In this document: positions 31,740-32,484 of the stretch, in pieces
Position numbering within the stretch: the first letter of the stretch is position 1
How the letters are laid out: each line of letters starts with the position of its first letter
DNA from: Girardia tigrina
Taxonomy: Eukaryota
Direction: 5' to 3'
Assembly (NCBI GenBank): GCA_001938485.1
Contig: MQRK01221946.1
Coordinates: 1-64,000 of the forward strand
Length of the DNA stretch: 64,000 bases
Program-made: the position numbers and the translations under genes
Notes under the pieces: generated by a model
Seen by the model: only the letters and a program-made list of their open reading frames with translations
The model's database searches: none
Told to the model about the DNA's origin: nothing

Positions 31740-32259
31740 TGTGAGGAATATTTTAAATTTGGTATGTTGAAATTGGTTTGTTGAATTTTGTATGTTGAGT
31801 TTAGTATTTGGAAATGTGTTTCTCCCACCCAGATGGAAAATTGATATTTTGGATGTTCACAATAAATAATTATTCGAGTATAATTTATATTTTAAAGTAC
31901 AGCACAAGATATTTAAAAATATTAAATCATTTCAAATTTTCATATTAAAATTTAAATAAAATAAATAGTTTTAACTAAGTTTTGAATTAAATAAATGTTC
32001 CTTCTTTCAAAAAAATATTTTTAAATAAAATTAATATGTAAATAAAATTATTACTAAAATTACCAAATTTGAACTGTAAAAATAAAATCTGAAAATAATG
32101 AAAAATTTGTTCGAATGATTGTTTAATAACAAACATTAACAAAAAATTATCAATTTAGAACGATGTCGAATGACGAGAGTTTTGCTGAGAGCTGTCCAAA
32201 AGACAATTCTGATTGTATTGAAAATAAAAGTTTGAAAACCCATGTTGGTGTTCTTAATA
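31740..32259 (+). mobile_element. 5' LTR (520 bp, TG...TA) of a Ty3/Gypsy element
   Basis: Starts TGTGAGGAATA, ends GTTCTTAATA, followed directly by PBS-like TGGTGACAC at 32260. Confidence 0.85.
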
Positions 32260-32484
32260 TGGTGACACACGACCACGTGATTCCGAACATCAGAGGTCCG
32301 GAGATTTTTGATGGATCAGAAACAAAAGTTGAGGCATTCATAACGAGCTTTAACAGGTATGCGAGGATAATGGGATTTTCAGAGGAGAGAAAAATCTTAT
32401 TAGCAACACCATATATGACTCCGGATGCCATAATAAAATATGAAGCAGCGGCAGGTGAAACATGTGAAGAGAAACTAAGATCCG
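32163..32484 (+). CDS. gag: Gag N-terminus starting within the LTR
   Basis: MSNDE...GVLN|MVTH...PEIFDGSETKVEAFITSFNRYARIMG; homologous to the 28089 copy; ends at gap. Confidence 0.8.

Follow-up and report, generated by a model that had tools for sequence, protein, structure and literature searches.

LTRs of Ty3/Gypsy retrotransposons normally run from TG to CA, and elements of the Drosophila 412/mdg1 type carry a long leader with short ORFs between the PBS and gag. In the available parts of two descriptions of Ty1 (PMC5454406; PMC4974528), the RNA starts at DNA nucleotide 241, the 5′ UTR covers nucleotides 1-53 and the LTR is 334 bp long; the AUG lies approximately 41 nt inside the LTR, giving about 13-14 LTR-encoded codons, and the PBS, from approximately nucleotide 335, lies within GAG. 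These sources agree with the original prediction for the present locus, which had cited Ty1 GAG as beginning in the LTR. In Ty3, according to the available part of one of them (PMC4974528), the PBS adjoins the 5′ UTR and is not located in GAG. For plants, the accessible sections of a survey of 50 genomes list TGTA as one of seven non-canonical LTR types and assign 89% of the classified non-TGCA elements to Copia and 11% to Gypsy (10.1101/137141), and those of a lotus study report 941 TGTA Copia copies, with the third base being the least constrained (PMC9804982). The literature searched, which was thin on subscription journals, contained no animal Gypsy element with TG...TA ends and no Gag start within a Gypsy LTR; the accessible parts of PMC3383448, PMC7175516, PMC4202319, PMC13709905 and PMC2774666 hold nothing on TA Gypsy ends or an LTR-start Gag.

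The window analysed here is the whole 64,000-nucleotide stretch of the Girardia tigrina contig MQRK01221946.1 (positions 1 to 64,000, forward strand). It contains a decayed, likely Gypsy-type family with TG...TA LTRs in which Gag probably begins at an LTR-internal ATG and would carry a predicted disordered tail overprinted on the likely terminal signals of the LTR, with the start and cleavage sites placed where we infer them. As in Saccharomyces Ty1 (Pseudoviridae, Copia), to the extent that the sources above cover its layout, the gag start lies inside the LTR and the frame is open through the PBS. Unlike Ty1, a member of the Copia superfamily with an initiator-tRNA PBS, this family has a predicted Ty3/Arc-like capsid, two zinc knuckles and a likely -1 frameshift, together with a leader of up to 33 codons running over AATAAA, a second in-frame ATG at the junction with the PBS and a TA end. 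A TG start (3 of 5 copies) and a TA end (6 of 6) are shared with the plant TG...TA elements; the plant non-TGCA elements, unlike this Gypsy-like family, are mostly Copia, and an LTR-encoded Gag leader is unmentioned for them in the accessible sections. In its predicted capsid fold, its zinc knuckles, a protease located past Gag and a putative PBS adjoining the LTR, the family resembles Ty3/Gypsy elements (Metaviridae) and dArc1, Arc and PNMA, whereas it differs from Ty3, as far as that element is covered above, in having the PBS inside gag and a TA end, and from the 412/mdg1 layout in that gag runs through the PBS. Taken singly, these features all have precedents; their combination, with up to 33 codons overlying the likely poly(A) signal and with a TA end, seems not to have been described before.

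The window is AT-rich (18-35% GC per 2 kb), interrupted by N gaps and crowded with transposon remains. Five LTR copies had been listed as sharing a TAATA end, at 32259 (+), 28023 (-), 29644 (-), 58768 (-) and 19154 (-), and reading of all five confirmed this; four of the five lie on the minus strand, a point absent from the earlier account. The proposed boundary was also confirmed, as the ends at 32259 and 28023 are followed by TGGTGAC and TGGCGAC, respectively, and then by Gag, whereas those at 19154, 29644 and 58768 are followed by unrelated sequence. A sixth copy (E), new relative to the earlier list, is split by an element with terminal inverted repeats; its two pieces sum to approximately 521 bp, compared to 520 bp in element A, and a 9-nt repeat offers an alternative end at 56662 that likewise reads TAATA. 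Copy G is cut off on both sides by other repeats, copy B has no internal element sequence beside its LTR, and no copy in the window has both LTRs. Neither a 3′ LTR nor a TSD was found for element A, which is truncated near 35510 and whose flanks are a repeat-coded ORF. The coordinates are collected in Table 1.

An identical 18-nt host sequence is present at 31722-31739, before element A, and at 35514-35531 (+), after the truncation point, and on both flanks of element A the sequence reads as a single zinc-finger ORF containing a short repeat. A broken 14-3-3 coding fragment (33387-33780, +) lies between the two gag parts of element A, beside N gaps, and either was inserted into the element or results from mis-joining of the scaffold. 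The element inside copy E (53388-56212) is bounded by short terminal inverted repeats that match imperfectly and has a 21-33-nt tandem array in its interior; its right end, the rest of the LTR and approximately 50 bp of flank are duplicated in inverted orientation at 53454-54058. The inverted pair 53454-54058/56080-56703 is one split LTR, ending at 56653, with a local duplicate; its interpretation as a PPT next to a second LTR subfamily with an end at 56747 was rejected. Other occupants of the window are fragments of a GIY-YIG (Penelope-like) element at 20348-21049, 28115-28400, 18775-18876 and 11811-11910, one of which cuts off copy G; a Tc1/mariner-like transposon at 16844-18576 with 54-bp terminal inverted repeats and a transposase broken by a stop; and a multi-exon C2H2 zinc-finger host gene at 12352-14284 (-). 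This gene and the 14-3-3 fragment point to a eukaryotic host, probably an animal.

Table 1. Positions of the LTR copies in the window and of the gag and pol features of element A
Feature	Position	Strand	Description
Element A 5′ LTR	31740..32259	+	520 bp, TG...TA
Element A leader	32163..32258	+	LTR-internal ATG, 32 codons, in frame with Gag
Likely poly(A) signal AATAAA	32223..32228	+	In frame as Asn-Lys; CA at 32241-32242 and GT-rich run downstream
Terminal A and PBS-like TGG(T/C)GAC	32259..32268	+	Forms second ATG
Gag capsid N-terminus, element A	32259..32484	+	Runs into N gap
Rest of Gag, element A	33778..34519	+	Two zinc knuckles (zf-CCHC); one stop and one frameshift
Start of pol, aspartyl protease (RVP / gag-asp protease)	~34465..35107	+	-1 frame, past GGGAAAC heptamer at 34468 and stem-loop
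Copy G	27899..28110	-	Last 88 nt of 5′ LTR (end 28023), 22-codon leader 28024-28089, PBS, Gag start
Copy B	29644..30058	-	Complete 415-bp LTR, TG...TA, 22-codon leader 29645-29710
Copy C	29359..29640	+	5′ (U3) part only, TG start, without terminus or leader
Copy D	58768..59153	-	386-bp LTR, AG start, TA end, 33-codon leader 58769-58867
Copy E	53303..56653	+	LTR pieces 53303-53387 and 56213-56653, 31-codon leader 56560-56652, TA end
Copy E′	53504..53943	-	Local inverted duplicate of the 3′ piece of copy E, TA end
Copy F	19154..19496	-	5′-truncated LTR, TA end, broken leader

In the arrangement that we favour, transcription would begin in the LTR upstream of the first ATG, placing that ATG in R. 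The first ATG lies 66-99 nt inside the LTR, so the leader would be superimposed on the likely poly(A) signal, a U5 of very short length, the integration end and the PBS; scanning ribosomes would start at this ATG and read through all four into the capsid and zinc knuckles, and pol would be reached by a likely -1 frameshift at 34468. The leader frame would be kept because stops or frameshifts there would abolish Gag, and selection would remove these with little concern for the residues encoded.

The usual animal poly(A) layout consists of AATAAA, a cleavage CA and a GT-rich downstream element. AATAAA was found 34 to 39 nt before the LTR end in six of seven copies, in five of them in frame as Asn-Lys, and four copies have a CA at -18, read as His or Gln, followed by a run of 67-92% G+T. 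This succession is likely a poly(A) signal and would imply a U5 of approximately 17 nt. Asn-Lys is also present at codon -9 to -13 in eight of nine database leader types, and the conserved Asn-Lys, His/Gln, Val-Leu-Asn and Met-Ala-Thr may all be read-outs of nucleic-acid signals. No conserved RNA structure was detected over the leader (z-scores of -1.1 to +0.8 in four of four folds), and there were no Rfam matches in the window.

Leader residues vary 4-10 times more than those of the capsid. Within seven clusters, 29 of 207 leader sites were variable compared to 44 of 1190 capsid sites, and shared variants were present at 19 of 207 and 11 of 1190, respectively; between six clusters, identity was 33% in the leader and 61% in the capsid. 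Differences at the three codon positions in the window DNA numbered 19/16/14 in the leader and 9/11/27 in the Gag core (p 0.007). The comparison of dN and dS that had been proposed for the leader gave similar synonymous and non-synonymous divergence and no sign of residue constraint, with purifying selection not seen in 15 pairwise comparisons of 21-31 codons each (pN 0.03-0.44, pS 0.09-0.81). Two AlphaFold models, built from 10-17 sequences, have a pLDDT <50 over the first 33-40 residues, with the predicted helical capsid beginning after these, and are suggestive of a disordered leader. The frame of the leader is kept and its residues are free.

The original prediction took the conserved frame to indicate a translated, Cys-rich leader, possibly giving two Gag isoforms. 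In its full form this reading would make the leader a functional module, for metal binding, acylation or targeting, and the pair of ATGs a purposeful means of producing both isoforms. Cys accounts for 12 of 118 codons in the leaders of the window clade, relative to approximately 3% expected (p 2e-4 if codons are independent, the copies being related), and five clusters share an invariant Cys nine bases ahead of AATAAA; however, the sister leaders P0073 and P0070 have no Cys and one Cys, respectively, and there is no excess of synonymous change. The second in-frame ATG made by the terminal A and the PBS was seen as described, in a context of A at -3 and G at +4, with TGG(C/T)GAC adjoining the LTR end in both gag-bearing copies. 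The PBS was taken in that prediction to resemble the tRNA-Arg type of 412/mdg1; no tRNA gene is present in the window, and a sequence for the 412/mdg1 PBS was not found in the literature covered. Among the matches listed, the residue before the junction is Asn in all 67 leader records and the junction Met is present in 65 of the 67, the two exceptions including a full-length ORF (P0059). Since the predicted capsid fold begins past residue 40, a shortened Gag could still adopt it. Conservation of the junction Met is nevertheless no evidence for isoforms, because an ATG, used or not, arises wherever a TGG PBS directly follows an LTR whose last base is A; the second ATG would be a by-product of the terminal A and the PBS, and the claim of two isoforms is left without independent support. 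A shorter Gag produced by leaky scanning is possible. A dedicated Cys-rich module with purposeful isoforms is considered unlikely, and translation is the part of the proposal that stands as likely, given the frame that is kept and a leader in most clusters of the family.

The LTR-internal ATGs reported as open for 22, 22, 32 and 33 codons in four copies were recovered, and copy E adds a leader of 31 codons; with copy E′ included, the six intact leaders are 32, 33, 22, 22, 31 and 31 codons long from the ATG. The copy at 19154 has lost the ATG and has one stop and a frameshift in the leader. The six leaders contain no stops in the Gag frame, compared to 6-11 in frame +2. Shuffling of four separate leaders gave a joint chance of 4e-5 of staying open, and a neutral-drift model that required an open frame, the ATG and three length differences in multiples of three gave 3e-4 to 8e-5, both calculated post hoc. 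Indel lengths modulo 3, a check suggested at the outset, were in keeping with a retained frame: gaps within the intact leaders are 30, 6 and 3 nt in the seven-copy alignment, some being split otherwise in pairwise alignments, whereas those in U3 are frame-random. Pooled leader GC3 was 0.21 relative to GC1/2 of 0.32/0.38 (permutation p 0.005), an argument weakened by the low third-position GC of the 99 nt upstream of the ATG (0.20/0.20/0.09). In each of the six intact copies, position -3 relative to the first ATG is a purine. A conserved motif is located just 5′ of this ATG (32148-32162, +, with matching sites elsewhere), with an AG approximately four bases upstream in seven of seven copies; it is a possible initiator, translation context or splice-acceptor signal.

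Relatives among protein records extend these observations. The full-length relative P0001 is 95% identical over 107 window residues (the leader and the next 75), and further protein clusters of the family reach down to 43% identity. One hundred database records were taken from among the matches listed, 77 of which matched the capsid N-terminus pattern. Among these, 67 carry an in-frame leader ending in Asn before M(A/V)T or a variant, four start at the junction Met and six start elsewhere; the 23 records without the capsid pattern were excluded, and by eye include one with a leader, one with a junction start and one with a leader alone. A leader was found in 11 of 12 clusters among the matches listed and was absent from cluster P0072 (3 members); most leaders have 22-35 residues, and in one cluster upstream extensions bring them to 46-49. 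Gene callers tend to choose upstream starts, and the database leaders, being their product, show an open frame rather than translation. The 40-residue record P0014 consists of a leader followed by unrelated residues right past the junction Asn, as would be expected if it came from a solo or 3′ LTR sharing this boundary.

If the leader were untranslated, Gag would start at the junction ATG, and the open frame would be due to shared ancestry and nucleotide-level conservation of R-U5. Nucleotide signals do explain most conserved positions, pN is approximately equal to pS, the second Met is the first residue in four of the 77 records and a leader is lacking in one cluster. However, these signals require neither an ATG nor a stop-free frame nor lengths divisible by three, and the open frame persists over 22-33 codons at a DNA identity between copies of 57-74% and in 11 of 12 clusters, whereas the U3 gaps are frame-random. 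An untranslated leader is judged quite improbable, and translation of the leader as the N-terminus of Gag is likely on the basis of the sequence.

A TA end is a family trait in this window rather than a product of decay, a conclusion well supported by the six window copies. As had been claimed, the LTRs in the window end in TA and not CA: TAATA is present at six of six ends and a terminal CA at none. With the six copies anchored at the terminal A, and leaving out the pair of the two PBS-bearing copies, mean pairwise agreement was 1.00 in the final 5 nt and 0.77 in the final 15 nt, compared to 0.23 in the 20 nt beyond the end. The TG start is kept in three of the five copies having a start and lost in two (p 0.06 relative to CA in none of six), so some decay of the termini does occur. 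The end had also been described as an imperfect inverted repeat of the start, which is present but weak (5-7 of 9 matches in four copies). Observed/expected ratios in the window were 1.07 for CpG, 1.05 for CpA and 0.76 for TpA, so there is no CpG or CpA depletion and TpA is under-represented, making six independent CA-to-TA changes unlikely. The position that distinguishes TA from CA is the third base of the Asn codon in the leader frame. A change from CA to TA is silent, and the TA end would for this reason reflect integrase acceptance rather than coding; the integrase would have to tolerate TA. Database proteins cannot distinguish the two ends, because Asn is encoded by AAY with T or C as the third base. 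No relative of the family was found in prokaryotic genome contigs in two scans.

A perfect TSD was found for no copy, with matches of 4/5 for copy E′, 3/5 for copy B (4/5 with a two-base slip in an A run) and none for copy D. The integrase C-terminus, PPT and start of a more distant 3′ LTR (62207) are located at 61900-62375 (-), and this is the only LTR before which a PPT was seen. It has a decayed leader-like frame before a candidate CA end near 61933, has no nucleotide match to the family, and was excluded from all counts. That TA is not the true terminus, either because CA decayed in old copies or because the boundary is off by a few bases, is very improbable: the copies are all old and broken, TG is gone from two of the five starts, copy E has a CA at +2 past its end and the distant 3′ LTR has its candidate CA end, but TAATA is identical in six copies whose leaders are otherwise 57-74% alike, the CA past copy E is missing from its duplicate E′ and none lies within 6 nt of the end in any of the original five copies, the window has no deamination bias, and the PBS fixes the terminus in two copies.

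The gag/pol overlap of element A (34468-34515, +) contains the GGGAAAC heptamer followed by a stem-loop of -15.2 kcal/mol (z -2.5), and the overlapping C-terminal peptide is common to most database Gags, which suggests a conserved -1 frameshift site at 34468. The best fold match to a model of the relative P0073 was the dArc1 capsid, a weak match (E 0.007, with none under 0.001), and Atlas Retrotrans_gag look-alikes at 0.92-0.93 are a lead only. When the Gag profile was searched against the sequences of solved structures, the zinc knuckles alone were matched, and the 100 records listed include no named relative of this Gag. In element A, the RT region coincides with an N gap; integrase pieces occur at 25544 and 62562, neither of them physically joined to the LTRs described here. 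The family is likely a Ty3/Gypsy-type LTR retrotransposon, its predicted capsid fold pointing to the Ty3/Arc rather than the Ty1 type.

Sister lineages of the family have other leaders. The P0073 leader begins QRQITDFF and the P0075/P0071 leader has QTLITDHF, PIP-box-like sequences in two sister types, where approximately 0.005 matches are expected in nine leaders for what we take to be the PCNA-binding PIP-box pattern. The motif is absent from the window copies and known from protein records alone. The P0070 leader has a weaker PIP-box look-alike. A speculative and improbable extension is that the LTR end serves as a swappable N-terminal module of Gag. As the leader would be part of R-U5, subfamilies could trade Gag N-termini whenever LTRs are exchanged in reverse transcription, with some lineages docking host PCNA by the putative PIP-box and the lineage of the window carrying a Cys-rich tail, while leaky scanning would set the ratio of tailed to tailless Gag, tethering particles to replication forks, and the integrase would have adapted to TA ends. 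No report of an LTR-element Gag docking on the replication machinery was found in the literature searched; if the PIP-box-like sister leaders are functional, they would provide a testable route by which such docking occurs.

This family would be missed or mis-trimmed by LTR finders that insist on TG...CA and by annotation that places the start of Gag past the PBS. The observations suggest a further origin of the Ty1 layout, in a Gypsy-like lineage, and an integrase that tolerates TA ends across the whole family; a single stretch of 70-100 nt would combine protein code with a likely poly(A) signal, the integration end and the primer site.
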